From an uncultured virus (IMG/VR IMGVR_UViG_3300037504_000331) (lineage: Duplodnaviria; Heunggongvirae; Uroviricota; Caudoviricetes): 64,000 nt of DNA. Shown here piece by piece: positions 13 to 62,271 of the stretch. Positions within the stretch are counted from its first letter, which is position 1, and each line of letters opens with the position of its first letter. The stretch lies in the IMG/VR virus record IMGVR_UViG_3300037504_000331; one strand, 5' to 3'. The notes under the pieces were generated by a model. It was not told where the DNA came from. It did no database searches and saw only the letters and a list, made by a program, of their open reading frames with translations. A program made the position numbers and the translations under genes.

Positions 13-52
13 GGGAGGGCCCGGGGACACGGGAGCAACCCCGGACCCTCCC
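13..52 (-). ncRNA. 14-bp RNA hairpin whose 12-nt loop (UUGCUCCCGUGU) is complementary to the early-gene leader ACACGGGAG
   Basis: Minus strand GGGAGGGUCCGGGG-loop-CCCCGGGCCCUCCC with one G-U pair; just downstream of ORF 76-711. Confidence 0.5.
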
Positions 53-8964: not shown

Positions 8965-8985
8965 GGGGTTTCAAGGAGACGAGCG

Positions 8986-9291
8986 ATGGCGTTAGAGCCG
9001 ATGGACTGGGAATGGGTAGGCGATCTGAAGCACTACCGGAAGGTGATCGAGGGTAAGACCTGCCGGATCACGAAGCTACGGGGAGTGGAGACGGATTTCC
9101 CGTGGAAGGTCCACATCGACGGCCTGGGCTCGGTGAATATCGAGAACCAGGGCTTCGCACGGTCGATGAACGAAGCCAAGCGCATCGCTCGTGAGGCGGC
9201 CGAGGGCCGTCCGCGGAAGGGGATGGACAATCCCGAGTTCGCGAGGGCCCGTCGGCGCCATCAACGCCGTGTTCACAAACCACTCTGGTAG
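8986..9291 (+). CDS. hypothetical protein (101 aa)
   Basis: AGGAGACG RBS; first gene after the promoter. Confidence 0.75.
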   Translation: MALEPMDWEWVGDLKHYRKVIEGKTCRITKLRGVETDFPWKVHIDGLGSVNIENQGFARSMNEAKRIAREAAEGRPRKGMDNPEFARARRRHQRRVHKPLW

Positions 9292-9304
9292 GGAGACGAC
9301 AGGC

Positions 9305-9697
9305 ATGAAGGATATTCCGGATAGTGAATTTCGGATAGGGCGTATCATCGTCATCAGAAGTGGTTCCCGAGACCATGAATGCGCCGGCTACCGGATCGAG
9401 GAGACGACGGCGAAGCGGGTCTACGTCGGCGAGCTGGTGTGCGGCAGGGAGGCGATCTACCTGCCGGGCCAGGGCGGGCGCCGCAAGCCGAGTCGGCCCT
9501 ACGTGAGCAAGACCGATGTGCTGGCGGTCGTCGACACCGTGGAGAAGTTCAACGCGGTGCAGATGGCTTTGAACAGCTACACCCGCGAGATCGGCGAGAT
9601 CAACGCCGAGCGCTCTGAGCGGGCGCGTCGCGCGGGCAACCAGTTCGTCGACGAGCTGGACCGGATCGGCGTAGCGCACAACCGAAGCCGGCCCTGA
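9305..9697 (+). CDS. hypothetical protein (130 aa, MKDIPD...)
   Basis: GGGAGACGACAGGC-ATG. Confidence 0.7.
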   Translation: MKDIPDSEFRIGRIIVIRSGSRDHECAGYRIEETTAKRVYVGELVCGREAIYLPGQGGRRKPSRPYVSKTDVLAVVDTVEKFNAVQMALNSYTREIGEINAERSERARRAGNQFVDELDRIGVAHNRSRP

Positions 9698-9725
9698 CCA
9701 CCAAACCATAGGGAGACGACAGAAG

Positions 9726-10454
9726 ATGGCACGATCCACGATCATGGCCGCGGAGGCGGCCGACCAGCAGAACCAGGAGAACGAGCGCAAGCGTGTCGCG
9801 CGGGAAGAGGAGGAGATTCTGTACCGCGACGCCAACGGTCAGCCGTTCTCGATCTTCAAGGCCATGCACCAGCTCGTGCTCAACACCCTGGTGCCGTACC
9901 GCGAGCGCGCGTTGTTGGCGGAAGGGCGCTTGGAAAAAGCGCGAGAAGGCACCAAGCTGGCTATCAACGCCGTCAACGAGGACCACGAGCAGAAGTTCGA
10001 GGAGAAGTACGGCAAGCCGAACAACCGCGGCGGCCGGAACGGCTTCGTGATCTCGCCGATCAACATCAAGGACGTGGAGGTGGTGTGGGACAACGAGGCG
10101 GCGATCATCCGCTTCGGGGACCGGCGCATCGCTCCGCGGATCAAGGAGTGGCTGGACTGGCACCGCAACGTCCTGCCGGCGGAGACGGACGAGAATGTCG
10201 ACGTGCCGAGCGCGTGCCAGGATTTCTACCTGCGCAAGCGGCTCTCGAACGGCATGGTGGTCGGCCGAGGCGACAAGATCGTGATCCGCGTGAGCGACGA
10301 GCGGCGCGAGGTCATCATGCGGGTCGACCGCCTGAAGAAGCGCGAAGGCGAGGTCTGGGTCCAGGGCTCGGTCCCGAAGAGCAACCTCCCGCGATTCTCG
10401 AAGACGGCCATCGTTTCCGAGCGGCGCGTTCTGCGCTACGCTGATCCGGATTAG
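9726..10454 (+). CDS. hypothetical protein (242 aa)
   Basis: GGGAGACGAC RBS; strong codon bias. Confidence 0.8.
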   Translation: MARSTIMAAEAADQQNQENERKRVAREEEEILYRDANGQPFSIFKAMHQLVLNTLVPYRERALLAEGRLEKAREGTKLAINAVNEDHEQKFEEKYGKPNNRGGRNGFVISPINIKDVEVVWDNEAAIIRFGDRRIAPRIKEWLDWHRNVLPAETDENVDVPSACQDFYLRKRLSNGMVVGRGDKIVIRVSDERREVIMRVDRLKKREGEVWVQGSVPKSNLPRFSKTAIVSERRVLRYADPD

Positions 10455-10470
10455 GCCCTAGGAGACGACC

Positions 10471-10680
10471 GTGGCGCGTAAGTCTGAGAGCGGAGTGTCT
10501 GTGGACAACGTGGAGGACCTCATCGACCTGATGGGGTCTCAGGTCGCCGTGGCTGATGCCTACGGCGTGAGCCGGGCCCACGTGTGCCAGTCACTCCGCC
10601 GGGCTCGCGTCAAGAAGCGCCGGCAGGAGAAGGCCGACGAGGGCGGAGACGAGGAGCTGAGCCTTGAAGACATCTTGTGA
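10471..10680 (+). CDS. small HTH DNA-binding protein (69 aa)
   Basis: GSQVAVADAYGVSRAHVCQ HTH pattern. Confidence 0.65.
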   Translation: MARKSESGVSVDNVEDLIDLMGSQVAVADAYGVSRAHVCQSLRRARVKKRRQEKADEGGDEELSLEDIL

Positions 10681-10867
10681 CCCAGACCTGTTCGGTGCGC
10701 CGAGGCGGTTGTCGGACATCGAGGTGCGTAAGGTGGTGGATCACGGCCACAGCACACTTCACTACATCGTGAGCTACCGCGGCCGGCGGATCGACTCCTC
10801 GCTGAAACGCAAGGTGGCGCTGAGGCGGCGCCGAGACTTCTACGCGAAGGCGTGCAAAGCCAAGTGA
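10664..10867 (+). CDS. hypothetical protein (~67 aa)
   Basis: Coupled ORF with GAGGAG upstream. Confidence 0.55.
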   Translation: MKTSCDPDLFGAPRRLSDIEVRKVVDHGHSTLHYIVSYRGRRIDSSLKRKVALRRRRDFYAKACKAK

Positions 10868-10873
10868 GGCGTC

Positions 10874-10999
10874 ATGAAACAGGCGCTAGCCTGGGCCAGC
10901 GGATTGGGAGCAACGTGGTTCACGGAGCCGCTGCCTCAAGCCCTGCTTCTGGCCCTGGCTGCCGCCTGCGCCGCCTCGATCATCAACGACCGGTTCTAG
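10874..10999 (+). CDS. 41-aa hydrophobic peptide (MKQALAW...)
   Basis: GAGG RBS; fills the gap; below the track cutoff. Confidence 0.45.
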   Translation: MKQALAWASGLGATWFTEPLPQALLLALAAACAASIINDRF

Positions 11000-11010
11000 G
11001 GAGACGAACC

Positions 11011-11727
11011 ATGAGCGACTTTGGGTATGGCTGGATGATCGGCGGAGGGATCGTGCTCTTCTTCGTGTTCATCGCATACTGCGCCTTCATCCTGTCCGGC
11101 CGGATCGGCGACGACATGGACGGCGTGGGGGCGCACCGCCCGTTCGAGGGCTCGCCGTTCCTGCCGCCCGAGGACACCGACCGGCCGGAGCACGACGCCT
11201 TGGCCGACAAGATCGAGCGGGAGAAGTACGGGCAGTGTCCGGCCGAGACCCAACTGCCGCCTGCGCGCGAAAGCTCGGCGCAGAAGGCGGACATGGCCCA
11301 GGAGATCAAGGTCTACCGCCAGACCTTGGAGGCTCTCGCGCACTTTACGAGCGATCCATGGGCCGAGCACTTGGCGCGTAAGGTCTGGGACAAGCCCACG
11401 ACTGAAACGGCCGAGTTCGCTATCGCCCAGGCGCCGCGTATGAGCCCAGATCAGAAGAAGACCAAGCTGGTCGAGGCCAAGGGCAGCGCGCTTGTCGTGA
11501 AGGACGACAAGATCGGCCAGTACGTCTTGACGGTCGGCCAGCAGATCAAGTGGTTCGACCGGGGAGGTGGTTTCCAGCGCGGCCGGATCGAGAGCTTCTA
11601 CGAGAACGAGAACGCGGCCGATGATTCGGATCGCTGGTACGTCCGTGTCCTCGATGAGCGCACTGGCAAACCGAGGACCGTGCTCTCGAACCGCGTCCAG
11701 CCGCTCACGAAGGACCTGTGGACATGA
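11011..11727 (+). CDS. membrane-anchored protein (238 aa, MSDFGY...)
   Basis: GGGAGACGA RBS; N-terminal TM. Confidence 0.75.
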   Translation: MSDFGYGWMIGGGIVLFFVFIAYCAFILSGRIGDDMDGVGAHRPFEGSPFLPPEDTDRPEHDALADKIEREKYGQCPAETQLPPARESSAQKADMAQEIKVYRQTLEALAHFTSDPWAEHLARKVWDKPTTETAEFAIAQAPRMSPDQKKTKLVEAKGSALVVKDDKIGQYVLTVGQQIKWFDRGGGFQRGRIESFYENENAADDSDRWYVRVLDERTGKPRTVLSNRVQPLTKDLWT

Positions 11728-12059
11728 TGCGCCGGATAGAGGTCTGGACCGGCACGGAGCACGTGACCGTCCCGATGTTCTGCGTGCCGATGCCGCGGAC
11801 CTTCGAGAACCAGGGCTGGGTGAGGCACTACCGCCGGCTGCTCGAACTGCGGCAGTGGAACCGCAAGCTCTACAACGCCGTCGCCGAGCACCACCTGGGC
11901 GACCGAAGCCAGTTCCATCGGCCGCAGATCGGCCGGGGATGGCTGTACGGCAAGCGTCGCTACTGGCTCGTCTACCCGAACCGGGATCGGAAGGGCGCGA
12001 CCGGCGCCTTCCCGACCTTCATGGAAGCCTGCAACTGGTATCGAAACGGAGGCCGCTGA
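11718..12059 (+). CDS. hypothetical protein (~111 aa)
   Basis: Translationally coupled ORF. Confidence 0.7.
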   Translation: MDMMRRIEVWTGTEHVTVPMFCVPMPRTFENQGWVRHYRRLLELRQWNRKLYNAVAEHHLGDRSQFHRPQIGRGWLYGKRRYWLVYPNRDRKGATGAFPTFMEACNWYRNGGR

Positions 12060-12060
12060 G

Positions 12061-12681
12061 ATGTCCCAGAAACCCGGATACGGCTACACCACGGAGCGCG
12101 TTTGCGACGGCTCCTTCTCTTTCCAGATGGCCCCAGGCGACATCGACAACTGGAAAGACAGCGGCAACCGGCGAGTCGAGGTCCAGTTCGAGAACTACGA
12201 GCTGGCGCACGGCTTCATGACTTGGTTGAGGGACCATGGCGTTTCGGAGATCACGGAGAAGCCGCCGTATGCCAAGGTGCTCCCGACCTTCACCTTCGCG
12301 CCGGCCGACGTTCTCGCGGCCGTGAAGTTCCAGAACAGCGTCTACCACATCAGCTTCGGCAACGGGCAGGTCGCGGAGCAGTTCGAGCGGTTCTGCCAGG
12401 AGGCCGGCATCAACTTCGATGACAGCAGTGGGAACGTCGAGAACACCGTCTCGAAGCTGAAGGAGGAGCTTCAGGGCATTCGCCAGACCAACGAAAGCCT
12501 GAAGGAACACGCGGTTCGCCTGAAAGAAGAGCGTGACCGCGCCCGGGAAGAGAAGGAGCGGATGGAAGACGGGGTCGGTCGCCTGGAAGATCGAATCGAG
12601 GCGTTGCAAGAGGCGCTGACGGACGCAGCGGAGCGCGAATTGCGCCTTAAACGGCGTCTCGATACCCAATCAAGGGGATGA
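12061..12681 (+). CDS. coiled-coil protein (206 aa)
   Basis: GGAGG RBS; heptad-rich C-terminus. Confidence 0.75.
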   Translation: MSQKPGYGYTTERVCDGSFSFQMAPGDIDNWKDSGNRRVEVQFENYELAHGFMTWLRDHGVSEITEKPPYAKVLPTFTFAPADVLAAVKFQNSVYHISFGNGQVAEQFERFCQEAGINFDDSSGNVENTVSKLKEELQGIRQTNESLKEHAVRLKEERDRAREEKERMEDGVGRLEDRIEALQEALTDAAERELRLKRRLDTQSRG

Positions 12682-12690
12682 GAACACTCG

Positions 12691-12719
12691 TTGACAGGAG
12701 GGTCCAGTTACTTCAGATT
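12691..12719 (+). promoter_or_regulatory. TTGACAGGAGGG-class promoter
   Basis: TTGACAGGAGGGTCCAG. Confidence 0.6.
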
Positions 12720-12910
12720 CGGTTCTCTTGGACGAGGGCGTGGCGCCGGCCCCGCGTCCAGGTCGCCCCTCCCCGACCGCGGCTCCGTCGGGATGTCTGC
12801 GGTCTCAGGGGCGCAGAGGCACGGAGCTAAAGGTGTGGTCAGCCTTGCACCGACGGGTGTCTGAGGAGGCCCCCAGGCCGGCAACACTGAAACACGAAGG
12901 AGACGGACGG

Positions 12911-13345
12911 ATGCCTCGTAAGATGGAGTTCTTGGAAACCAGTGCTGTCGGTCTCGACGGCATCTTCAACACCTGTCGCCTGGGCCTGAAGTGGTTCGAG
13001 GCCGTCAGCGCCGGCACGCCGGTCGACCTTGTGGTGGTCGGCGAGGACGGCATGAAGCAGAAGTTCGGGCAGGCCACGGTCATCGGCAAGGTCTTTGGCC
13101 CGTACGAGGGCCTTGCGCCTCTGCATGCCGCTTACAACCATGCTGCCGCGCATGACGACATCAACGGCGCCGAAGACCCCGTGCAGCGGCTCGAAATCGC
13201 CATGATGCGGGCCTACGGCGACCGCTTCAAGCCGAGCGAAGGCGTGGCGTTCGTCTACATGATCCGCACCGACACCAACGAAGCCGGCCGCCACGAGGCT
13301 CCGCAGATCGTCGGCCATGATCCGGCCGCGGACAAGGACGACTAA
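12911..13345 (+). CDS. hypothetical protein (144 aa, MPRKME...)
   Basis: AAGGAGACGG RBS. Confidence 0.75.
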   Translation: MPRKMEFLETSAVGLDGIFNTCRLGLKWFEAVSAGTPVDLVVVGEDGMKQKFGQATVIGKVFGPYEGLAPLHAAYNHAAAHDDINGAEDPVQRLEIAMMRAYGDRFKPSEGVAFVYMIRTDTNEAGRHEAPQIVGHDPAADKDD

Positions 13346-13347
13346 CC

Positions 13348-13530
13348 GTGAAGCTGGTAGAGAAAAAGGAGGGCTTCTCGCGCGAGCAGGAGAGCTGGGC
13401 GCGTGAGGCCCTCCAAGCCGGCCGTCCCCGGCGTCAAGTCGTGGACGGTCTTGTGGCAGACGGTGTGCAGAAGGACACCGCCCTGCGTCTGACCCGCCGA
13501 GTACGGGATCAGATCAAGACGGGAGGCTAG
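13348..13530 (+). CDS. hypothetical protein (60 aa)
   Basis: In-operon ORF. Confidence 0.55.
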   Translation: MKLVEKKEGFSREQESWAREALQAGRPRRQVVDGLVADGVQKDTALRLTRRVRDQIKTGG

Positions 13531-13531
13531 G

Positions 13532-13975
13532 ATGGAAGCGCTTGAAGGTTTCGCTGCGGAATACGGCAGCGTGTTCCTGTGGATCGCCAGTACCGTTGTC
13601 GTACTGGGAGGCGTCGTTCTCTTCATGGCGATGTTCCTGGCGCTCGCAGAGCGGCGGGACCGGTTGAAGCGCTTCTCCCGGCCGCCGTGGATCGACAACC
13701 GCGTGTACCGCCACATCAAGAGCCGGCGGCTGTACCGGTTGCTCTACTCCAACGTCTATCTGGAAGCCGAGTATCCGGACACGCCGATGTGCCTGTACCA
13801 GAGCTTGGCGGACGGTACTCTCTGGACCCGACCGGCCAGGGAGTTCTTCGAGCCCGGACGATTCCGAGAGGTCGGTGAGTACAGCCTGCTCCTGGAAGAC
13901 GCCCTGCGTGACCCAGGTAAGCAGCCGTACGATACGCCGAAGCTCGACGATCTGTCGTTCCGAGGCATGGCTTAA
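13532..13975 (+). CDS. DUF1653-like protein with N-terminal TM
   Basis: YRHIKS..LY...YQSL.DG.LWTRPA.EF motif. Confidence 0.65.
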   Translation: MEALEGFAAEYGSVFLWIASTVVVLGGVVLFMAMFLALAERRDRLKRFSRPPWIDNRVYRHIKSRRLYRLLYSNVYLEAEYPDTPMCLYQSLADGTLWTRPAREFFEPGRFREVGEYSLLLEDALRDPGKQPYDTPKLDDLSFRGMA

Positions 13976-13995
13976 CCAATAGGGAGACGACCCTG

Positions 13996-15072
13996 ATGTT
14001 CCTGAAGATCATGAGTGACGAGGACTTGCCGGACGAGGACCCGCGGAAGAGCTACACCCTCTTCGAGAAGGTCGACGAGGTGAAGTTCGCCCGCGAATCC
14101 CGGGGCGGCGGAACCTTCGTGCAGTACATCGACGCCCACGGCACCCCTGTCGACCGACCGCTGTACGGCAATGCCTACGTGTTCAACGACATCGGCCACC
14201 TCATCAGCTCCTTCGGCGTCGCGAGCCCGTATGCGCCCGGCGAGGACGATGAACCTGAGCCGGAAGGCTACCACGTCGAGCCCGGCTGGCCCTTCGGCCC
14301 GAGCGGCGGCCCGATCCCGGGCGAGACCCCGCCGATCTGCACCGGCTACCACAATCTCGACGCTGCGCCATACCTCGGTATTAAGTCCGAGCCCGGTTTC
14401 ACCGACGATCTCTCGGAGCGGTTCGAGCTGCTCCGCATCCCCGACAGCGCCGACGTGGTCATCCGGGACAAGGTCACGGGCGAAGGCGCCATCCTGGCCG
14501 GTGAGGGTCAGACTGGTGAAGATGCACAAGGCCCCACCATCGACACGTTCGAGGCCCTTCAAGGCCAGCACATCCTCATGGCGGAGGCTTTCCACCTCGT
14601 CCAGAACGCCGGCCTGATCGTGCCGAAGGACGCCCTGGACGCCCGTCTAGATGGCGGCCGAGAGCGGCGTCAGAAGCAGATCGAGAGCTACAAGCAGCAG
14701 ATTCGCACCTTGGAGAACGACCGGCCGTTCCTGCTCGATCTGGTCTTGGGTGTTCCGGAATCCCACTTCGACTCGCTCGTCTCAGCGGCCGTGTTCTGCG
14801 CTGTCTCGGCGCGCGGACATGATCCGGTCCTGGTGCCGGAGACGATCAAGTCTACTGGTGGCCCGGATCGCATCGGTGACGCTCGTCTTTTCGAGCTGAT
14901 TGACGCGCTCAATGCTTACCTGAAGAAGGGCGACGTTCAGAGCCGCCAGGACCTCGCGATCTCCGCCATGCGGCTCTACGCCTGGGAGAACAAGGTCCGC
15001 TCGACGAGCGACGAGGGCTACCGGGCGATGGAGAACCTGCGCAACGTCGCCGACGCCGTGCTTACCGCTTGA
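13996..15072 (+). CDS. hypothetical protein (358 aa)
   Basis: GGGAGACGAC RBS; codon bias. Confidence 0.8.
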   Translation: MFLKIMSDEDLPDEDPRKSYTLFEKVDEVKFARESRGGGTFVQYIDAHGTPVDRPLYGNAYVFNDIGHLISSFGVASPYAPGEDDEPEPEGYHVEPGWPFGPSGGPIPGETPPICTGYHNLDAAPYLGIKSEPGFTDDLSERFELLRIPDSADVVIRDKVTGEGAILAGEGQTGEDAQGPTIDTFEALQGQHILMAEAFHLVQNAGLIVPKDALDARLDGGRERRQKQIESYKQQIRTLENDRPFLLDLVLGVPESHFDSLVSAAVFCAVSARGHDPVLVPETIKSTGGPDRIGDARLFELIDALNAYLKKGDVQSRQDLAISAMRLYAWENKVRSTSDEGYRAMENLRNVADAVLTA

Positions 15073-15121
15073 CTTGATGGCCCCTTAGCCTAAGCTGAGG
15101 GCGTCATCGTCGACTCCTCCG

Positions 15122-15156
15122 GGCCGGGTCTTGAGCGAGATGCTTGGGGCCCGGCC
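15122..15156 (+). ncRNA. 15-bp RNA hairpin with GAGAU pentaloop
   Basis: Full pairing needs four G-U pairs, so plus-strand RNA; follows TTGACT..TAAGCT promoter at ~15069. Confidence 0.55.
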
Positions 15157-15174
15157 TACTCTTGTCTGGGTGCG

Positions 15175-15315
15175 GAAATTAGAAGCCCCGCCCCCGGGAG
15201 ACGGACAGGGGCGGGGCTGGGAGACGACAGGCGATTGATGCCGACCGGATCGCCCGTACCAGGAGGCGCGCACTCCGGGTGCTTCATACCTACGCCGCCA
15301 TGTCAACCGTGTCAA
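15175..15315 (-). ncRNA. candidate antisense sRNA carrying two CGUCUCCC (anti-RBS) motifs
   Basis: Two minus-strand TTGACA (15301, 15310); 11-bp hairpin 15184-15218 followed by UCUAAUUU. Confidence 0.4.
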
Positions 15316-15655
15316 GCTCATGGTTAACGCTTGCTCGTTAAGACGGCCTCGGGTAGCTTCAACTCTGGGCACATCGAGAGGAGAAGCCCTGTGCTTTGGA
15401 GTTACCCGGTCAAGGTCGCATTGCAGGCTGTCTTCGACAGGCGGCCGACACGGCATTTTGCCCGGGGTTTCCTGGCATGCTACATGCTCGTCACCAGCAT
15501 CGAGATGATGCTGTGGGAGAGCTTGCTATCCGAATGCTGGTACGACACCGCGCTCTACGCGCTTGTCTGGCCGGTCTACAAAATCGCCGTGGCCTTGCGG
15601 ATCGAGATGATCCAAGACTGGGTCGTGGCGTTCACCTCTTGCGGAGGATAGGACG

Positions 15656-49594: not shown

Positions 49595-49604
49595 GTTCGT
49601 CTCC

Positions 49605-51278
49605 CTACTCTCCCATGGCACGGTACTTCCCGCGCCACATCGTTACGATGGTCCGTTTTCCGTTCACGTAGGTCAAGGTGTGCGACATGGACCCGCTGCT
49701 CGGGCCCCGCTCATACTCGTAGTTGCCGCTCTTGCCGGACACGTACACATCATCCTGGATTCCGGCGGAGTGCATGTGACCGATGTTCTTCTTGCGACCC
49801 ATCTTGGCGAAAACCGTCAGCGAGCCTTTGGCGCCATTCGGGCCGAGGTGCCCGTGCATACCGCACTCGACGCCGCCTCCGCGGTCTGGGCAGACCACGA
49901 AGCTCTCGTCTTCCCGCAGAAATCGCTCGGCGCCGCAGCCGTGCCGCCGGAGAGCCCATTCGAGCATGTGGAAGCCGTAGTCGCGGCGTTCGAGTGCCCG
50001 GTACTTCGCTAGGCTGGCCTCGTGCCAGAAGATCGCGTTCACGGGGTCCTGGTGAGGTGTCGTGTCCTTCACCCAGCGTTCGAGCGCGTTGTCGTGGTTC
50101 GAGTCGACAATCACGCTCTGGCAGTAATCCCGCCGTGCGAACCGGCAGAACTCCGCGGTGTTCTCAAGCTCGTCCTCGATGCGCTCGGTGCCCTCAACAT
50201 GCCGCTTGAACATCTTGTGCGGGTTGCCGCGCTCGTGGTGATTCCGGGCGTAGTGGTCGAAGAGATCGTGGAAGAACTGGTAGCGAGGCCGCAGCTCGTC
50301 GATCATCCCGCCGGGCGACCAGCACGCCTCCATCATGACCGGGTCCATCTGATGGCAGTGGATGTCCGCCCAGGTGATCGCCTCGATTGGATGCCCCTGT
50401 GTCACGAATCCATTGGACACCTTCACATCCCAGTCATAGATCATACCCTCGTTATCCATGTGAAGCTGCCGGACGAACCAGTCGCCGCACGGCTCGACCT
50501 CGACCATGAGCGCCGAGTAGCTGTGGTGGAAGTCGGCGATCTGCCCGGCCTTCTTGGCGATGTAGTTCCGCAGCGTGCAAGCGCCGGTCGTGTAGTTGAA
50601 CTTCGTGGGCTCGTATTTCCCGCTCGGGATCGACTCCATGGCGATCTTGGCGTGCGGGAAGATGCCCGATTTCCGACCGGTGTAGGTCTCGAAGCCGCTC
50701 AGAGGCCGCTTGCCCGTCGGCAGCACGTTGATCTCGCCGCAGAAAATGAGCCCAGGGGCGATCTCCACGCGCTCGTCCGTGATGAATGGTATGATCTCAG
50801 GGTCATACCAGAGTTCGTCCTGAGACTTCACCTTGCCGGGCTTCACGCTTCCGGAACCGTAAGCAGATAGGTTGTACGTGAAGCGAGAGACCATCAGCTC
50901 AGCGTCGTAGTATTGACGCAGGGCCAGGAGGTTACGCCATCCGGGCTCGAAGACCTTGGTGTTGTTCTGGGCGCTGGTGATGATGTAGCGCCGGACGCCT
51001 TGCCGCGGCATCGCCCGCACCTTGGTGTGCAAGGGCTCAATGCGGCCGTCCAAGTTGTATGCGGGATCAGGTTCTTCGGCTTTGTTCGGGCGCTGGCCCG
51101 GTTTCTGGTTGTCGGCGTGCGTGCGCTGCTGCGCGAGGCCCTGGTTGACGGCTCTTTGGTAAGCCCGGCGGACCATGTCGAAGGACCGGTTGAGGTGCTT
51201 GGCGGCTTGGCGGATGCTACCGTGCTCGCTGACGAGATCGGCTGCCTCCTGGGGCGTCAATTCGGGCTTACGGCTCAT
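49605..51278 (-). CDS. calcineurin-like metallophosphoesterase with N-terminal HTH
   Basis: DIH, HDLFD, SNHD, HGH, GHMHS motifs; GSIRQAAKHL HTH. Confidence 0.7.
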   Translation of the reverse strand: MSRKPELTPQEAADLVSEHGSIRQAAKHLNRSFDMVRRAYQRAVNQGLAQQRTHADNQKPGQRPNKAEEPDPAYNLDGRIEPLHTKVRAMPRQGVRRYIITSAQNNTKVFEPGWRNLLALRQYYDAELMVSRFTYNLSAYGSGSVKPGKVKSQDELWYDPEIIPFITDERVEIAPGLIFCGEINVLPTGKRPLSGFETYTGRKSGIFPHAKIAMESIPSGKYEPTKFNYTTGACTLRNYIAKKAGQIADFHHSYSALMVEVEPCGDWFVRQLHMDNEGMIYDWDVKVSNGFVTQGHPIEAITWADIHCHQMDPVMMEACWSPGGMIDELRPRYQFFHDLFDHYARNHHERGNPHKMFKRHVEGTERIEDELENTAEFCRFARRDYCQSVIVDSNHDNALERWVKDTTPHQDPVNAIFWHEASLAKYRALERRDYGFHMLEWALRRHGCGAERFLREDESFVVCPDRGGGVECGMHGHLGPNGAKGSLTVFAKMGRKKNIGHMHSAGIQDDVYVSGKSGNYEYERGPSSGSMSHTLTYVNGKRTIVTMWRGKYRAMGE

Positions 51279-51754
51279 CGCACTTTCTCTCCTAGGAGCT
51301 TCTGTCGACCGTAGTAGGCGAGCAGCGCAGCCTCGGCAACACCGTCGTCATTCTTCTGGTCGAACAGGTGGGAGTAGCTAGGGAAGAGCTGCCGGGCTAG
51401 GGCGAACGACTTCTTCTTGTCGCTACTCAAGCCCATCGTCATCTTCCAGGTCGTTGGCGCAACGTCCGTGATTGGGATTCGGTTTACGACCACGAGCATC
51501 CGTTGAGCACCGTATGTGGAACCGAACTTGAAGGCTGAGGAACCGCCGTCTTGCGGCCGGGCTCCTACCTTTTCGATGAAGGCGTGATCGCAGCCGCCGA
51601 ACATCAGCTCGAAGGCTTCGGCGAGCATCAACCAATCAACCTCTTTGCCACGGCCGCTGCTCTTGTAGGACGGCACCTTGTAGGTCGTCAGATCGTGACC
51701 ATCCCAGGAGGCATAAGCGCCGCTCTGGCCGGGGTCTAGTCCTAGAACTCTCAC
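51275..51754 (-). CDS. RuvC-like Holliday junction resolvase
   Basis: LGLDPG.SGA, IEKV, P..WK, DG.AEAALLA. Confidence 0.85.
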   Translation of the reverse strand: MRVLGLDPGQSGAYASWDGHDLTTYKVPSYKSSGRGKEVDWLMLAEAFELMFGGCDHAFIEKVGARPQDGGSSAFKFGSTYGAQRMLVVVNRIPITDVAPTTWKMTMGLSSDKKKSFALARQLFPSYSHLFDQKNDDGVAEAALLAYYGRQKLLGEKVR

Positions 51755-51816
51755 AAGTGCCTCCTGCGTACCAACTTCAAGCTACCACACTCCGGGAATC
51801 GTGCAAGCTCGGGGCC

Positions 51817-52002
51817 TTATTCGTGGCCTCTGTCGCGATCCGAGGTGTGGATCGGGCAGTCGGTATAGATGATATAGCGACCGCCCTCATCCCATCGGAG
51901 ACCGTTGCCGCCGCGGTATCCGTCACCGTACTGGTTATCTGTTACAGGACAGGTGCAGCCGAGGCCAACGGCCTGTCCGGTTCCGGGATCGGGTGCTCTC
52001 AT
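51817..52002 (-). CDS. small Cys-containing protein
   Basis: GCTCPV.DN..G...CPIH. Confidence 0.55.
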   Translation of the reverse strand: MRAPDPGTGQAVGLGCTCPVTDNQYGDGYRGGNGLRWDEGGRYIIYTDCPIHTSDRDRGHE

Positions 52003-52003
52003 G

Positions 52004-52093
52004 TCAGGTCCCCATGCGAAGGATCAGTACCCAGAGTGCCGGAGCGCCCAGGTAGACCAGAATGAAGAAGTAGGTGAACAGGACGAGCTTCAT
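52004..52093 (-). CDS. 29-aa membrane peptide (MKLVLFTYFF...)
   Basis: ATGA-coupled to the upstream gene; hydrophobic. Confidence 0.4.
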   Translation of the reverse strand: MKLVLFTYFFILVYLGAPALWVLILRMGT

Positions 52094-52380
52094 GCGTCTG
52101 TCCCCGGTACGATGAGTGGTCCGCCGCCGCGTCTCCGGCGAGCGATTCGCATCCGCGCGAGCTGCCGCATCGTGACTTCGACGGCGCCGAGCTTGACGGC
52201 TTTCGCGCGCATCTCCTTGGACACGTCGTAGTGATCGCCCTGGAACCACTTGCGCTTGACCCCTATGGCGTCCGCCATGGCGTGCAGCTCCGCATCGGTA
52301 TCGGCCATCATGTGCGACATCTTCATGTAGCCGTAGCTGCCCATCGGGCTTTTGTGCATGTCGTCCACGTAGACGGTCAC
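52090..52380 (-). CDS. DUF4031 family protein
   Basis: VYVDD...SHM.AD...ELHA.A..IG..R.WFQGDHYD. Confidence 0.85.
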   Translation of the reverse strand: MTVYVDDMHKSPMGSYGYMKMSHMMADTDAELHAMADAIGVKRKWFQGDHYDVSKEMRAKAVKLGAVEVTMRQLARMRIARRRRGGGPLIVPGTDA

Positions 52381-52577
52381 GATGGATTCTCCACGGTTGC
52401 CTTGAACTGCTCGTTGCAGCTCGCGCAGCGGTATCGCTTCCAGGTGTTACCCTGGTGATCCTTCGATCCGACCTTGCGGGTGAACAGGTCGCCGCACCCG
52501 CAGCTCGGGCAGATGGGATGCAACGTCCCGCGCAGGAACGCTGCCCGAGCTTCCAGCTTCTCGCGTTGGGTGCTCAT
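52377..52577 (-). CDS. zinc-ribbon protein
   Basis: CPSCG...YRCASC. Confidence 0.6.
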   Translation of the reverse strand: MSTQREKLEARAAFLRGTLHPICPSCGCGDLFTRKVGSKDHQGNTWKRYRCASCNEQFKATVENPS

Positions 52578-54688
52578 GCCTTCATGTACCTCTTACCTTC
52601 CCAGCCATCGACGGCGATGGGGCAGCCCTCGGCCCACGGCGGGACCGGAAGGGCCATGTGGTGCTCGAAGTCCTTCAAGCTGCCGTAGTCGACCGGGACC
52701 TCGGCGATAATCTCGTCATGGATCGTCAGCAGCGTCGGGTAGCCGGCCTTCTCGACCCGGACCATGGCCTCGGCCATCAAGTCCCGAGAGATGGCCTGCA
52801 CGACGTTCTCAGCGAGCATCCCGCCGTACGTCGAGACGATACCCCAGGCGCCGCCCTTCTTGTTGTCGCGGCCCTCATAGCGTAGCTCAAGCATCTGTCG
52901 GCCGAACTTCGTGACCTCGACGGTATGCGGATTGTAGTACCACAGCCGGCGACCATTGGGCAGGACGCACGTCAGCCACTTCCCGGCTTCGTCCTCGACC
53001 GGCTCAAACCAGATCGAGCAGTTGCCCACCTTGACCTTCTTCCACATCCGCACGGCGTCGATGGCGGCGTCCTGTAGGCGATACCACAGATTCACGATGT
53101 TCGGGTGCCGCTCTCGCCATGCGATCTTGTAGCCGTTGATCTCCTCGTCGCTGTACTTGCCTGAGTCGTCGAAGTTGTACCAAGCCCCGACGCCGCCCTG
53201 GTAGCCGAAGGCAAGCTCACAGGTCTTCCCGACCTGACGCTCCTTCGGGTGTTGCTTCTTGTCGATCACCGGGTAGCCGAAGACCATAGAGGCGGTCGCG
53301 CAGTAGATGTCCGCGGACTCGCCGTAGGGCTCACCACGTTGGATCGCAGCGAAAGCATCGACCTTCCACGTTTCGTCGGCCAGCCATGCCAGGACCACGG
53401 CCTCGATAGCGCTGAAATCGGCGACTAGGAACCGCTTGCCTTCCCCGGCTATGAACATACCGCGCAGAGCCGTCGCGAGCGCCTCCATGACATCGCCGAA
53501 GATCATCTCGATAGCATCGACGGCGTCCTGGCCGCGCATCTTGATGCACTCGATGAGCAACTCCATCGTCTCGGCTTCTTTCATGCCGAGGGTCTTGGCG
53601 TAGTCTTCGAGGCTGCCGCGTGGGAAGTTCTGCGGCTGTACGAGTCGCCCGGCCCATCGACCGGTGCCGGCGCCGTGGTATTGAAGCAGGCCGCGGATTC
53701 GGCCGTCTTGGCATGTGCAACGGTAGAAGGCCACCAGCTTCTTAGTGCTGCCCTTGGAGAGCGACTTACGGATGCGCAGCACCTCTCCAACCTCTTGAGG
53801 CGCGTTGCCGGCGGCCAGGGCCTTATCGACCGTGTCGCCCTTCATGTCCGCCATCGGGTAGCCTTGCCGGGCGAACCACGTCAGCATGAGATCGCGCTGA
53901 TTCGCTGTCTGGACTTCGCCGCCCGTGATCTCCTGAAGGCGCTTGGTCTGCTTCTCCGTGACGATCTCAGCGACTTCCCAGGCGGCCGTCACGGCGTCCA
54001 GATCGACGGCAACGCCTCGGTAGTTGATGGTCTGATCCAGCACCCACAGGCGGAACTCCGACGGAGGCAGATCGCCTATCGTCTCGCCCAGCTCGTCCTC
54101 GGCCTCCACGTCGGTGCCGCAGTAGTCGTACAGCTCTTCGAGCAGGTCCGGGTCCTCGCGATAGACCGTGGGCCAGTCCTCCGGCGGCACACCCAGGTCT
54201 TCCAGCTCTTTCTTCTCGGCCTTGCGGAGCTTGCGCGGCTTCGAGAGCGTGTCGAGCAGGTACTTGCCGCGCTTGTCCTTCTGGACATCGAGGCCGAGCA
54301 CGGGCCCTACCTTGTCCAGACCGAGAGGCAATGAGCGATACGCGCACGAGGCCAGGGTGTCGACCCACCTTGGCGGAACCTCGACACCGACCATGTGCCG
54401 CAGGATGTGATACCAGATCGCGCGCTCGAACTGGACGTTGTGAGCCTCGAAGGTGTAGCCGGCCAGCGCGTGGGCAACGATCTCTTGCGGGAACGGCTCT
54501 CGGCCGGGAACCCAGACGTTACGCCGGCCCTTGCCCTTGTGCTTCCAGCCAAGGCACAGAATCTCAGTGCTGTGGTGCTCAGCGTAGCGCCATGCGCCGA
54601 CATCCTTGACGTTCAACTCCGAGCGAGTCTCGAAGTCCACGACCATCCGCGGCAGCGTCAGCGCCTTCGGCTGGAAGGGGTGACTCAT
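52574..54688 (-). CDS. polA: family A DNA polymerase with 3'-5' exonuclease
   Basis: DFET, TGRWAG, DFSAIE, RQVGK..ELA.GY, IHDE. Confidence 0.92.
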   Translation of the reverse strand: MSHPFQPKALTLPRMVVDFETRSELNVKDVGAWRYAEHHSTEILCLGWKHKGKGRRNVWVPGREPFPQEIVAHALAGYTFEAHNVQFERAIWYHILRHMVGVEVPPRWVDTLASCAYRSLPLGLDKVGPVLGLDVQKDKRGKYLLDTLSKPRKLRKAEKKELEDLGVPPEDWPTVYREDPDLLEELYDYCGTDVEAEDELGETIGDLPPSEFRLWVLDQTINYRGVAVDLDAVTAAWEVAEIVTEKQTKRLQEITGGEVQTANQRDLMLTWFARQGYPMADMKGDTVDKALAAGNAPQEVGEVLRIRKSLSKGSTKKLVAFYRCTCQDGRIRGLLQYHGAGTGRWAGRLVQPQNFPRGSLEDYAKTLGMKEAETMELLIECIKMRGQDAVDAIEMIFGDVMEALATALRGMFIAGEGKRFLVADFSAIEAVVLAWLADETWKVDAFAAIQRGEPYGESADIYCATASMVFGYPVIDKKQHPKERQVGKTCELAFGYQGGVGAWYNFDDSGKYSDEEINGYKIAWRERHPNIVNLWYRLQDAAIDAVRMWKKVKVGNCSIWFEPVEDEAGKWLTCVLPNGRRLWYYNPHTVEVTKFGRQMLELRYEGRDNKKGGAWGIVSTYGGMLAENVVQAISRDLMAEAMVRVEKAGYPTLLTIHDEIIAEVPVDYGSLKDFEHHMALPVPPWAEGCPIAVDGWEGKRYMKA

Positions 54689-55050
54689 AGGATTTCCGCC
54701 AGCTCAGCGTCGATCTCTTCGTCCGTCTTCTCGCGCTCGGGTTCGGGCTCAGCCTTCTTCGGTTTGGCCTTGGAAGCCTTCTTACGCTTCTCGTCGGGCT
54801 TGGCACCGCCAGGAGCCGGCCCGCACGCACGACGGTCGTTGTTCCGATAACCTTCCAGGGCGTCCTCGATAGCGGCTGCGGCCGTCTGGGTCGAGGTGCC
54901 TACCCACATATCCCCGCCCTGACCGGTCGTGATAGCGGCCCGCCAGCGCTCATCGTGGTTCACCTTCTTCGGGTTGATCTCGAAGAGATGGGCCAGTAGC
55001 AGACCCTCGTCAGCGATCTTGGCGTGCGCCTCCTCGAACGTCATGGTCAC
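54685..55050 (-). CDS. hypothetical protein (121 aa)
   Basis: GGAGG RBS; coupled. Confidence 0.65.
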   Translation of the reverse strand: MTMTFEEAHAKIADEGLLLAHLFEINPKKVNHDERWRAAITTGQGGDMWVGTSTQTAAAAIEDALEGYRNNDRRACGPAPGGAKPDEKRKKASKAKPKKAEPEPEREKTDEEIDAELAEIL

Positions 55051-55355
55051 GTCCTCCGCCGGCCGTTCATGTAGCCGACGACCATGCTGTGATCGTGCGT
55101 GATCGACTCCGGCACCTCACCCACATAAGCGATCTGGTATTCGCCCATGGTCGAGAGGCCGGTGAACCGGTCGAAGTCGAGCTGCCACGGTTCCAGGCCA
55201 CGGTTGATGACGCGGACCATGATCTTGCCGCTGTGGACCTGATAGATGCGCGCCGTCAGCTTCACGGCCTCCTGTCCTACGGGACGGATACCGATAAGCT
55301 CGCGCTCGGCGATCTGCTCAATCGGCTTCTCGAACCAGTCTCGGAACGTCGGCAT
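55047..55355 (-). CDS. hypothetical protein (102 aa)
   Basis: GGGAGACGA RBS. Confidence 0.65.
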   Translation of the reverse strand: MPTFRDWFEKPIEQIAERELIGIRPVGQEAVKLTARIYQVHSGKIMVRVINRGLEPWQLDFDRFTGLSTMGEYQIAYVGEVPESITHDHSMVVGYMNGRRRT

Positions 55356-55366
55356 GATCGTCTCCC

Positions 55367-55440
55367 AGAGAAGAAGGAGGGCGAGGTGGGGGATGGGGAC
55401 CTCGCCCTCCTAGTGTCCGAGCCCGGGGAGGTGGGCTCGG
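55367..55440 (-). terminator. two hairpins with C-rich loops; the distal one is terminator-like
   Basis: 8-bp stem with loop ACCUCCCC; 13-bp stem with loop CCCCAUCCCCC, then UCUUCUCU. Confidence 0.6.
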
Positions 55441-55449
55441 GTCGCTGAA

Positions 55450-56148
55450 TCAGAACGGAATCTCGTCGTCCAGACCGTCGGTCGGGTCGTGGGGCGACTC
55501 GCCGCCCTGGATACCGCCGAACCGCTCTTCCGCGGACATGCCGCCGATACGCTGCCCCTCCTTCACGAAGAGCACGGCGTTGCAGTAGAAGACCAGGAAC
55601 CGGCCCTGCGGGGTGTGCATGGCCTTGAGATTGAGCGACGCCTTCGCGTAGTGGCCGCCGACGAACAGGTCCTTGGCGCGTGCCATGTCCTGCTCGTTGT
55701 TGCGCGACAGCTCACGGAACTTGCCCTGATCGAGCACGAAGAGCTGGGGCGGGTAGCCCTCCTTCGCCTTGATCGGGATCACCTTCATGTTCTCGTAAAC
55801 GTCACCCTTCTTGCCCTTGGCCTCCTGCTGCTGCTTCTTCTGGTTGCCGTCGACCAGGGGCCACTTCAGGCCGCCGTTCTGCACGGCATCGCGCAGGTTG
55901 ATGTCCGGCCACTCGGCCTTCGCGACCTCGGCCATAGCGTTCTTGACGCTCATCTTCTCCCAGTCATCGTCACGCCGGCCCTCGAACTCGTCGAGCGCCT
56001 CGGGAGTCAGAAGCATGTCGCAGGAGAACTCGGGATCGCCCTTGCGATTGGTACGGGGGTCCTGGTACGCGCGGGCCTCAACAAGATTCGGGTAGCTCAT
56101 GCGGAACATCGGGCTCCGCAGCAGAATGTTGGCGGGTTGATTCGCCAT
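55450..56148 (-). CDS. single-stranded DNA-binding protein (DUF2815/gp2.5-like)
   Basis: RMSYP.L, FVKEG.R.GG, acidic DDEIPF tail. Confidence 0.8.
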   Translation of the reverse strand: MANQPANILLRSPMFRMSYPNLVEARAYQDPRTNRKGDPEFSCDMLLTPEALDEFEGRRDDDWEKMSVKNAMAEVAKAEWPDINLRDAVQNGGLKWPLVDGNQKKQQQEAKGKKGDVYENMKVIPIKAKEGYPPQLFVLDQGKFRELSRNNEQDMARAKDLFVGGHYAKASLNLKAMHTPQGRFLVFYCNAVLFVKEGQRIGGMSAEERFGGIQGGESPHDPTDGLDDEIPF

Positions 56149-56254
56149 GTCGTCTCTCCTTCGGTTTTTCTCAGCCCGTCGACTGATACTGCTGGTGGTT
56201 GTTCGCGACGGATAGCCGCTACGACCTGTGGTTTTTCACGGCCGCGTCCGACCG

Positions 56255-57463
56255 CTACTGCTCTGGTGGGACCTCGCCGAAGAAGTCTTCCGGCGTGATC
56301 TTCGCCTCCGCCCGCTTGTCGCTGACGGGGGCCAGGGTAAGCCCGGCGTCGGGCTTGTACGCGTATTTCGTGACGATGCTTGATCCACCCTTCAGCTTTT
56401 CGACAGCGGCAGGACCCTTCATCTTGCGAGGCTCGTAAGCCTCATCTCCGAACGTCTTCTGAAGCGCCTCTTCAGCACCCGTCTTCCAGATGCGACTCGA
56501 CTGCTTCCGGACGATCTTCTGGCCGGGTATCGTACTACCTTTCTTGGCCCGCTCGAAAGCCTCTTTTTCGAGGTTCTCGATGTACTTCTTGATCGTCGGA
56601 GCCCGTTGAAGGATGTCGCCGAGCTGTTCGTCCGTCAGGTAGACAGGCTCTAAATCAGGGTCCAGGTCTTGCTCCGCCTGACGGATCGCCGGGCAGTGTG
56701 CCTGGGCCGGGCAGAACCGGCACCAATCGCCGACCTTCAGCTTGGCATGCGGGCTCTCGGTCTCCTCCATCGCCGGGATAACCTCGAAGAGGAACCAGTC
56801 GGTCAGCTCTTCCGGGGTCGTGTCGTACCGGCGAATGACGCCCTTCGGGTGAGGATGTCGAGGCTGCACGATGTAGAGCTGGACCTGCTCGAACGTGTGA
56901 TCGGATCGCTCGACGGCGAGGTAGCCGTAGTAGTTGGTCTGCTCATCGTGGGGTTCGGCTGTCACGCCGATTCCGTGCTTGTAGTCCACGATGATGAGCA
57001 GCCCGAGGCCAGGGACCTCTAACACCACGTCAGAGGTGCCGAAAGCCTTGGAGTGGAGATCGCTGTAAAGGCCGACCTCGACGCTGAGCATGGCGTCATG
57101 CTCGGCATATCGAGAGCACAGGTCGTAGACGAAAGACACATGATGCGCGACCGCATCCGCCATCTCATCGTCAACGGTGAAGCTGCGCGAGCCGACAATG
57201 ATCTCGGTTCCGATGAACTCCCACGGCTCCTTGTCCTCCTTGAGGCAACGAGCAGCTACCTCGTGAGCGGCCGTACCTTCATCGGCGGCATAGCCGGCGC
57301 CACGACGCTCCTCTTCCGGGAGCTTGGCGGTTAGCTGGGGAGAGGCAGTGCAGTTCATCCATCGCTTCGCTGAAGAAGCACCCAACGAGCTGTGGGCAAC
57401 CTCTTCAGCATGAAGCGCTTCAGATACCGCGGTCTTAGCCTCGGGCTGTGCTGTCATCGTCAT
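56255..57463 (-). CDS. Cas4-like exonuclease (DUF2800)
   Basis: HS.L..S...RW..C, EGTAAH, FGTSD, DYKHG, CRFCPA...C. Confidence 0.85.
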   Translation of the reverse strand: MTMTAQPEAKTAVSEALHAEEVAHSSLGASSAKRWMNCTASPQLTAKLPEEERRGAGYAADEGTAAHEVAARCLKEDKEPWEFIGTEIIVGSRSFTVDDEMADAVAHHVSFVYDLCSRYAEHDAMLSVEVGLYSDLHSKAFGTSDVVLEVPGLGLLIIVDYKHGIGVTAEPHDEQTNYYGYLAVERSDHTFEQVQLYIVQPRHPHPKGVIRRYDTTPEELTDWFLFEVIPAMEETESPHAKLKVGDWCRFCPAQAHCPAIRQAEQDLDPDLEPVYLTDEQLGDILQRAPTIKKYIENLEKEAFERAKKGSTIPGQKIVRKQSSRIWKTGAEEALQKTFGDEAYEPRKMKGPAAVEKLKGGSSIVTKYAYKPDAGLTLAPVSDKRAEAKITPEDFFGEVPPEQ

Positions 57464-57483
57464 CTCCGGGCCGGGACCGTGCG

Positions 57484-58134
57484 TTAGAGGCCGAGTGCCT
57501 CGATACGGTCCTTGACCTCGGAGAGCTTGTCAGCCGGGAGGTCCTGGGTGCGGTCGACGCCGTACTCCTTCAGGATGCCCTTGCAGTCCTGCACGGAACA
57601 GACCTTGTCCTTCACCATCTTCGAGATGAGGGACTGGACCTCGCCGTGCGTCGGGCCGGAGCTGGATTCGGCCTGCTTCTTCGGGGCCTCGGCCGGCACG
57701 TCGTCGGCGGGCTTCTCCTGCTTCGGCTGCTCCTTCGGAGCCTCGGCCGGCGGCTCATCGCCCGGCACGTCATCGTTGGCGGAAGTGGAGGCGGCCGGAG
57801 CCGTCTCGCCGCCGTCGTCCGGCAGATCGTCAGAGGGCGCGGGCTCCGTCTTCTTCGAGGAGGACTTGCCTTTCGACGCCGAACTGGACTTGCCCTTCGA
57901 GGAGGACTGGCCGTCGGTCGTCTTGGTGGTCGCGGACTGCGTGCCCTGCGCGACGTTGAGGCCGAGTTGGGAGTAGACGTGATTGGACGCGGAAGCCATC
58001 AGTTCGCCGATGGCGGCGTCACAGCTTTCGCCGTCTTCCAGGGACGCCTTGAGCGTGACCTGGGCCTGCGCGTTCTCGTACTCCTTGGGCTGACGCTTCC
58101 GCATGAACGTCACTTCGATCTCGTAAACCTGCAT
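57484..58134 (-). CDS. hypothetical protein with low-complexity linker (MQVYEI...)
   Basis: GGAGACG RBS; downstream of a TTGACA promoter. Confidence 0.7.
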   Translation of the reverse strand: MQVYEIEVTFMRKRQPKEYENAQAQVTLKASLEDGESCDAAIGELMASASNHVYSQLGLNVAQGTQSATTKTTDGQSSSKGKSSSASKGKSSSKKTEPAPSDDLPDDGGETAPAASTSANDDVPGDEPPAEAPKEQPKQEKPADDVPAEAPKKQAESSSGPTHGEVQSLISKMVKDKVCSVQDCKGILKEYGVDRTQDLPADKLSEVKDRIEALGL

Positions 58135-58186
58135 CGAATCGTCTCCGGTTTGGTGAGGTGGTCGGCTACGGCCGGCTAACGAGCGA

Positions 58187-58215
58187 ACGCTATCCGCCGT
58201 GGGCCCTCCTGTCAA
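58187..58215 (-). promoter_or_regulatory. TTGACAGGAGGG-class promoter
   Basis: TTGACA-GGAGGGCCCACGGCGGA-TAGCGT (17-bp spacer). Confidence 0.7.
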
Positions 58216-58224
58216 CACATTGGA

Positions 58225-60269: not shown

Positions 60270-60287
60270 GGCTTCCCTCCCTTGCGC

Positions 60288-62264: not shown

Positions 62265-62271
62265 CGTCTCC

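Follow-up and report, generated by a model that had tools for sequence, protein, structure and literature searches.

At the junction between the accessory and late genes of this phage, a short minus-strand stretch carries two reversed copies of GGAGACG, a motif found at the ribosome-binding sites of many other genes in the same genome. The locus raises the question of whether these copies belong to a small RNA directed against the tagged genes or are leader sequence of another origin. The reading favored here, at a probability of about one half, is that the predicted RNA, denoted RNA-B, is a trans-acting anti-RBS sRNA that would damp the translation of the middle genes. The switch from early to late genes in tailed phages is known chiefly at the level of transcription. 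If the reading is correct, it would gain a translational layer in the form of a single phage RNA that silences a gene class via a private RBS tag. The literature covered, mostly open-access articles without their supplements, contained no description of a phage sRNA that silences its own gene class via a shared RBS tag.

The phage and its gene map

The window is the whole stretch of DNA that was analysed (64,000 nt) and constitutes the first 64 kb of a source record of 78,635 bp, which is circularly permuted with an end overlap of 127 nt. The full phage record is labelled G000, and coordinates above 64,000 lie past the end of the window. Family matches were obtained for the terminase, portal, scaffold, capsid, polymerase, helicase, and thymidylate synthase, and the capsid protein is 76–77% identical to those of YuA-type phages. 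From these protein sequences the phage is classified as YuA-like. The GapR domain of the phage is 93% identical to Rhodovibrio proteins, which points to a salt-loving Rhodovibrio as the likely host. Hfq is encoded in one and CsrA in both of the two Rhodovibrio genomes searched. A total of 111 genes were called in the full genome, and two were added later. The called blocks are as follows:

76–7278, minus strand, earliest block
8986–15072, plus strand, accessory block
15391–45668, plus strand, late block
45916–65246, replication block
65311–78239, minus strand, second early/middle block

The timing labels (earliest, middle, and late) were assigned from gene content and position, and the middle class pools the accessory, replication, and second blocks.

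The middle-gene tag and the RNA-B unit

The tag GGAGACG is present in the leaders of 23 of the 64 middle genes, 2 of the 35 late genes, and none of the 14 earliest genes. The frequencies in the middle and late classes differ with a Fisher p of 6.6e-4, and the tagged share of the middle genes is only 36%. By block, 7 of the 13 leaders are tagged in the accessory block, 6 of the 22 in the replication block, and 10 of the 29 in the second block, these last 10 lying past the end of the window. The tagged leaders of the accessory and replication blocks are listed here:

8975..13989, plus strand, leaders of accessory genes 8986, 9305, 9726, 10471, 11011, 12911, and 13996
49598..62622, leaders of 6 of the 22 replication genes: 49594, 55355, 58134, 62264, and 62454 (minus strand) and 62628 (plus strand)

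An earlier note on this DNA had named 13 genes preceded by GGAGACG. All 13 copies exist and precede ORFs, at offsets of 0–7 nt.

The tag is written as GGGAGACG(ACAG), with the extension in brackets. The core GGGAGACG occurs 14 times in the window versus 5.55 expected, and none of 100 shuffles reaches 14. The arrangement GGGAGACGA-N1-8-ATG occurs 14 times in the 78.5 kb of the phage versus 6 times in 5.8 Mb and 5 times in 3.4 Mb of two Rhodovibrio genomes, and the density of the tag in the phage is ∼170-fold that in the likely host. The end of the host 16S rRNA reads GAUCACCUCCUUUC and pairs with GGAG but not with the next AC, so the AC of the tag is not explained by rRNA pairing. The rarity in the host and the unpaired AC argue for a phage-specific tag that resembles the Start-Associated Sequences (SAS) of other phages and that, by its sequence distribution, favors middle genes and is scarce on late ones.

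The sequence GGGAGACGACAGGC is found at 15219–15232 and at 9291–9304, the latter before the ATG at 9305. A 14-nt complement of the 9305 leader and a match of the hairpin loop to the 12911 leader had been pointed out earlier, and both are present as described. The specificity for gene 9305 does not hold. The 12-mer GGGAGACGACAG is located ahead of five genes in the genome (9305, 9726, 70516, 74058, and 75128), and the unit therefore mirrors the tag consensus rather than gene 9305 alone. The 14-nt match corresponds to the 12-nt consensus plus two bases, and two extra bases in one of the five leaders are expected in ∼28% of cases. Five copies of GGAGACG lie outside called leaders and genes, and two of these are contained in RNA-B. 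A third noncoding copy, at 8046–8053 (plus strand) in a noncoding region of the window, shares CCCCCGGGAGACG with the RNA-B loop and is buried in a stem on the minus strand.

The elements of the RNA-B unit are listed below.

15287..15315, minus strand, putative RNA-B promoter: −35 TTGACA (15315–15310), 17-nt spacer, −10 TAGGTA (15292–15287)
15176..15281, minus strand, RNA-B, predicted ∼104-nt sRNA: assigned by its fold, with no tRNA and no Rfam match at the gathering score
15219..15232, minus strand, seed 1, GCCUGUCGUCUCCC: the 3′ 8 nt, CGUCUCCC, are predicted to form a single-stranded toehold, with weak pairing in the 5′ part
15195..15207, minus strand, seed 2, UGUCCGUCUCCCG: in the terminator loop
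15175..15218, minus strand, predicted RNA-B terminator: GC-rich hairpin with a weak U tail

Minus-strand TTGACA hexamers occur at 15315–15310 and 15306–15301, and only the first has a −10 element at the proper spacing. The predicted start of RNA-B is at about 15280–15282. Only 10 sites of the form TTGACN-16/18-TA[GTA] are found genome-wide, and they include five TTGACAGGAGGG phage promoters together with 15069(+) and 15315(−). The −10 element of RNA-B resembles the TAGGTT and TAGCTT elements of the phage's own promoters, and these sequence features suggest promoter activity. A generic sigma-70 scan of 8000–17000 returned no promoters because the −10 elements of the phage depart from TATAAT.

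The fold predicted from ∼15280 consists of two weak 5′ hairpins, the open 8-nt linker, and a 13-bp terminator stem. The unpaired probability is about 0.6–0.7 for the seed 1 toehold and about 0.9 for seed 2, which occupies a 9-nt loop. The terminator stem measures 11 bp (15184–15194/15208–15218) by inspection of the sequence and 13 bp, with the 9-nt loop UCCGUCUCC, by RNAfold. The hairpin has a z of −4.1, and none of 200 shuffles is as stable. Its minus-strand tail, UCUAAUUUC, is a weak U tail, and the plus-strand side is without a U tail. The description given in the earlier note, of minus-strand TTGACA hexamers facing an 11-bp hairpin with a weak U-tract, is thus borne out. ARAGORN identified no tRNA genes in the window, and the overlapping minus-strand ORF at 15085–15456 has a codon score of −20.3. 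Promoter- and terminator-like sequence signals thus bound a short noncoding unit.

Predicted action of RNA-B, alternative explanations, and known systems

RNA-B complements 40 of the 111 leaders over at least 8 nt, compared with a mean of 4.9 for 8,408 non-leader windows. It ranks first of these windows, only its own two windows reach 40, and none of 2,000 shuffles does so; this ranking is partly circular because the unit was picked for holding the tag. Single tag copies within genes score 27–32 versus the 40 of RNA-B. After correction for accessibility, middle leaders are predicted to be bound more strongly than late ones (p = 0.0024). At a threshold of below −8 kcal/mol, with the opening costs included, binding is predicted for 8 of 13 accessory, 10 of 22 replication, and 14 of 29 second-block leaders. 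Of the 13 earliest leaders 7 pass the same threshold, as do 8 of the 34 late ones. In this energy model, which leaves loop topology out of account, the middle-gene bias of RNA-B is real but not exclusive. The seeds are predicted to be single-stranded and are complementary to RBS regions elsewhere in the genome, with the best predicted target being:

9291..9304, plus strand, leader of gene 9305: accessibility-corrected energy of −24.7 kcal/mol

In the proposed mechanism, the minus-strand promoter-like site would give rise to the ∼104-nt RNA-B with its two mirror copies of the tag, transcribed by the host sigma-70 polymerase from what was probably an ancestral leftward stable-RNA promoter. The exposed CGUCUCCC or UCCGUCUCC is predicted to nucleate on GGGAGACG over the Shine-Dalgarno site, and the pairing is predicted to extend to 12–14 bp on the best leaders. 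Pairing with the tag on some two dozen middle mRNAs would block their translation. RNA-B may accumulate with time and genome copy number, or it may switch on with the late promoter via a shared GTTAAC box. Ribosomes would shift from the tagged middle mRNAs to the late mRNAs, most of which are untagged. This action may not require Hfq. We infer the transcription, the timing, and the repression by RNA-B. The feature that bears on the timing is:

15323..15359, plus strand, likely late promoter: GTTAAC-N8-GTTAAG box followed by TAGCTT, back to back with the RNA-B promoter

The layout of this box matches that of three early promoters (GTTAAC-N5-GTTAAG...TAG), and a similar N8 box is located at 21254 before the major capsid gene. 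The GTTAAC/GTTAAG box begins 8 bases upstream of the RNA-B −35 element. RNA-B may be co-regulated with the late genes because the box adjoins both promoters.

The locus could instead be a relic or a small plus-strand gene, an explanation that is judged unlikely. The copy at 15219 would be the ordinary RBS either of a 29–30-codon ORF or of an accessory gene that has since decayed. The hairpin would be a plain or bidirectional terminator with a duplicated leader fragment in its loop. TTG and ATG codons are found 8 and 11 nt after GGAGACG in the accessory-gene orientation, both tag copies are sense to the neighboring plus-strand genes as for a decayed leader, the phage freely duplicates leader and promoter modules, and the U tail of the hairpin is weak. 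The ORF in question is:

15238..15327, plus strand, 29-aa ORF: probably not a gene

Translation of this ORF had been named as a possible refutation of an sRNA. Its codon score of −9.7 is that of noncoding sequence (no called gene scores below −3.2 over its first 29 codons), it has no PHROG or Pfam match, and the equivalent short ORF in L002, a related phage, is unrelated in sequence. The terminator of RNA-A, a convergent plus-strand unit described below, lies just upstream with no plus-strand promoter between, and a relic would leave the minus-strand promoter and the loop copy unexplained. Alternatively, RNA-B may be transcribed but have little regulatory effect, being either what is left of a tRNA-Cys or the hairpin leader of a tRNA array that has been lost. 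The 3′ end of tRNA-Cys reads ...UCUCCA, one tRNA-Cys ends in TCGTCTCCA, and a minus-strand tRNA-Cys is present at the junction in 15 of the 16 relatives run through ARAGORN. Hairpins without an anti-tag loop follow the promoter in L006, L008, L081, L085, L088, L092, and L094, so the RNA-B hairpin may be generic. This explanation is nevertheless quite unlikely, since the similarity of RNA-B to 15 tRNA-Cys genes is near the shuffle level (in the two best of 15 tests, 4 and 6 of 200 shuffles score as high) and a tRNA remnant would account for a single short match but not for a 12-nt match to the consensus (∼1e-5 per 105 nt) together with a loop copy.

CsrB and RsmZ RNAs act as decoys and carry several GGA loops. 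By analogy, the tag might be the site of a translational regulator protein (phage or host CsrA), with a plus-strand RNA bearing a GGGAGACGGA loop as the decoy. CsrA is available in both Rhodovibrio genomes, the plus-strand fold places GGA motifs in a loop, and SAS tags are proposed to bind RNA or protein in the portion of the source available (PMC3203893). Against this very unlikely explanation stand the missing plus-strand promoter, the terminator just upstream, the single GGA loop of the plus-strand fold, and a scan of 77 phage proteins that returned no RNA-binding family. RNA-B could also be a general anti-Shine-Dalgarno RNA against host mRNAs, with host shut-off as its role and the phage match secondary. 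The exposed core CUCCC pairs with any GGGAG, in the mode of cuckoo and sX13, but the extended seed fits 14 phage starts versus 5–6 host starts, which leaves host shut-off highly improbable.

The earlier note had proposed an antisense sRNA against the RBS of middle genes. The complementarity, the class bias, and the noncoding profile of the rival ORF agree with this proposal, and the RNA and its repression remain predicted. As an anti-RBS sRNA, RNA-B would by analogy work like the sX13, cuckoo, and c4 RNAs, and it is a member of none of these by test.

The tag shares its asymmetry, its RBS position, its bias to non-structural genes, and its rarity in the host with the SAS motifs of Cluster K mycobacteriophages and Cluster EF Microbacterium phages, which are over-conserved RBS motifs that likewise reach beyond rRNA pairing (PMC3203893, PMC7302621). 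In the available portions of these sources, the function of SAS is left open, no cognate RNA is described, and a single reversed SAS copy that is untied to a gene start is reported in four K1 phages (PMC3203893, PMC7302621). The phage tag is shorter (8–12 nt), more degenerate, and different in sequence from the 13-bp Cluster K and EF consensuses given there, and its mirror copies sit in a promoter–terminator unit. If RNA-B acts as proposed, it would answer what binds the SAS motifs, a question open since 2011, and the reversed copy in the four Cluster K1 phages makes the anti-tag idea testable in a cultured system.

The c4 antisense RNA of P1 and P7 controls an antirepressor message and immunity and, as is proposed for RNA-B, is a phage RNA that acts on a phage mRNA near the RBS via a loop-exposed complement, according to the part of the source available (PMC12197685). 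Unlike c4, RNA-B would cover some two dozen unrelated genes via a shared tag. The Rfam C4 model gave no match to RNA-B at the gathering score or at E values up to 10. The Xanthomonas sX13 (PMC3771888) and the alphaproteobacterial cuckoo/RSs0680 (PMC4615179) are, in the sections of these sources available, RNAs of ∼100–115 nt with C-rich single-stranded motifs in stem–loops that complement the G-rich RBS regions of many targets, and sX13 acts without Hfq (PMC3771888). RNA-B differs from both in being phage-encoded and in having a seed fitted to a private phage tag rather than to a generic Shine-Dalgarno sequence. The Rfam model for sX13 (RF02232) scored 17.2 bits over RNA-B (E 0.58), below its 50-bit cutoff. 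The two to four hairpins of cuckoo/RSs0680, each with a CCUCCUCCC loop, are absent from the RNA-B folds, and no Rfam match was obtained. The sRNA1 and sRNA2 of the virulent phage PAK_P3 are also ∼100-nt intergenic RNAs, both are abundant late, and sRNA2 is located in a tRNA region (PMC4933390). In contrast to RNA-B, the portion of that source available reports no RBS-tag targets for them, and the repeated 11-nt match of sRNA2 is to host tRNA T-loops (PMC4933390).

RNA-A, related phages, and other regulatory sequences

A convergent plus-strand sRNA gene at 15069–15166 was not part of the earlier note's first reading. Its features are:

15069..15096, plus strand, RNA-A promoter: TTGACT (15069–15074), 16-nt spacer, TAAGCT (15091–15096)
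15099..15166, plus strand, RNA-A, predicted ∼65-nt sRNA gene: seed GUCAUCGUCGACUCCUCC (15103–15120), terminator (15121–15166)

RNA-A converges on RNA-B and ends ∼10 bases from the RNA-B end. It is found ahead of the late block in at least 16 distinct YuA-like loci, namely the window and L004, L005, L006, L009, L010, L080, L081, L082, L084, L195, L229, L233, L284, L286, and L327. Reversed gene starts dominated the viral scan for RNA-A, and loci were kept only if they passed the promoter and terminator filters. TTGAC and TCATCGTC are invariant in all 13 aligned loci. A model built from 9 loci identified 7 more at E ≤0.003 among 92 sources, 3 of them new. No Rfam family matches RNA-A. By these sequence comparisons, RNA-A is conserved better than RNA-B and is likely a real, uncatalogued sRNA family, which would be of interest independently of RNA-B. 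A small opposite-strand gene was rejected as its explanation because the frame runs from 3 to 67 codons with no shared sequence past the first two residues. Each member folds its own terminator and the stems align poorly; RNAalifold on 9 sequences gave no consensus stem, and stem covariation was not above that of shuffles.

The seed core CAUCGU of RNA-A mirrors GACGAUG, the start codon with its upstream bases. The raw top matches in G000 include earliest-type GGAGTCGAC leaders, and the leaders show no class bias (p = 0.2 raw, 0.6 accessibility-corrected). RNA-A was rejected as a general silencer of the earliest class on this lack of bias and on the mismatch of its seed to the GGAGTCG tag in G004 and G008, whose early genes carry that tag in 9 leaders each. 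In L005, L286, and L284 the best predicted partner of RNA-A is the start of the gene just downstream, which is the terminase gene in L005. Upstream of the first late gene in L004, L006, L007, L008, L009, and L081, the late 5′ leader is conserved and carries a small hairpin ahead of the RBS. It often begins at ACGATGAC, which is partly complementary to RNA-A.

The same junction was compared in distinct loci whose terminase identity is ≥55% and whose upstream sequence spans ∼900 bases or more, of which 26 were judged; 6 more were too short and were excluded from the promoter count. A leftward TTGAC-17/19-TA site, a loose pattern, is found in 18 of the 26, and a tRNA follows within the 190 bases examined in 14 of these 18. 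Because tRNAs mostly follow it in relatives, the leftward promoter likely descends from an ancestral stable-RNA promoter. A tRNA is absent from the junction in L002/L003, the closest independent relative (terminase 69%, capsid 86%). The unit there shares the layout of RNA-B but not its seed: the 5′ hairpin is weak, the CCUCUCUCACCU linker is open, and the terminator has a canonical U tail. The best energies of the L002 seed are −24.3 and −21.0 on its own leaders (among 21) versus −18.8 on the G000 leaders (among 111). This seed matches late genes best, namely the scaffold gene and the one that follows the capsid gene; the L002/L003 contigs are without most of the non-structural (early and middle) genes. 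An energy of −26.7 is also predicted for the G000 seed on one L002 leader. The one independent relative that bears on a joint change of seed and target across lineages has an own-leader preference and late targets.

G003 is 97–99.5% identical and unchanged at RNA-B, a conservation that carries little weight because G003 is near-identical to G000. It was the sole sequence homologue among the 14 matches of a seed-plus-stem pattern search. The top intergenic windows of 13 more distant relatives, YuA included, and of L195 contained no promoter–seed–terminator unit, and the first 45 kb of the 58.7 kb of YuA contained no RNA-B-like unit. Searches with the terminase, the capsid, SSB, and an 82-aa late protein yielded no independent near-complete close genome; no relative was confirmed with SSB, and the 82-aa protein gave one other protein. 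A middle-promoter motif search gave 5 matches, of which 1 is G003 and 4 are without a capsid homologue. Another small RNA unit is seen at the same junction in L208 (869–990, plus strand), with a promoter, a hairpin, a CU-rich linker CUCCCUCCC...AUCUCCC, and a terminator.

A further hairpin closes the earliest operon:

13..52, minus strand, hairpin after the last gene of the earliest operon: loop complementary to the earliest-gene tag GACACGGGAG

The tag GACACGGGAG is present in 7 of 14 earliest leaders and absent elsewhere on the same strand, and 0.003–0.03 copies of its complement are expected in the 7.3 kb region. The stem belongs to a repeat family also found between early genes at about 800, 1390, and 2330. 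The earlier note had suggested that each gene class has its own RBS tag and a cognate silencing RNA. The middle tag with RNA-B and the hairpin loop with GACACGGGAG fit this suggestion, but RNA-B is also predicted on earliest and late leaders (7/13 and 8/34), the late genes are without a tag, the scan of more distant relatives gave no B-like unit, and the L002 unit fits late genes best. The evidence argues weakly for one silencer per gene class. A set of RNA address codes, in which GACACGGGAG would serve the earliest genes with hairpin 13–52, GGGAGACGA the middle genes with RNA-B expressed along with the late genes, and RNA-A at GACGAUG starts would tune others, is a doubtful and rather improbable extension. 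If it were true, the SAS tags of other phages would be labels for uncharacterised phage sRNAs.

Between earliest genes, at ∼770–835, 1345–1420, and 2285–2360 (minus strand), lie long repeated stems that contain an internal loop and have no U tails; they are possibly RNase III processing sites. Paired TTAAC...GTTAA boxes occur with a 5-nt spacing at the early promoters 3264, 5302, 6252, 6756, and 7387 (minus strand), with an 8-nt spacing at 15323 and 21254 (plus strand), and in G000 at 75200–77528 (minus strand). They are by their sequence likely sites of a dimeric regulator, and many GTTAAC sites are found in the noncoding region 7300–8850. The phage promoter motif TTGACAGGAGGG(A/C/T)CC, followed by a TAG(C/G)TT-like −10 element, is likely the counterpart of the cofactor-dependent repeats of YuA. 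Its sites are:

8936, 12691, 58215(−), 62539(−), and 62565, in the window
67847(−) and 70992(−), in G000
8656 and 8819, partial sites

GANTC, which we take to be the alphaproteobacterial CcrM site, occurs 109 times versus 22 expected in 1–7300 of the window, where the vocabulary is restricted: GATC is low, and 4-mers such as GAAG and CACT are almost absent. In G004, three tandem GACTCC sequences at ∼1690 (minus strand) precede the first of the early genes, and GGTTCGACTCC, which is complementary to GGAGTCGAACC leaders, is found in several tRNA T-arms. Low-complexity repeats, of the GCAGATCGC type and then TCAAAT-rich, occupy 78259–78508 of G000 at the junction after the earliest operon, and are a possible genome end or origin.
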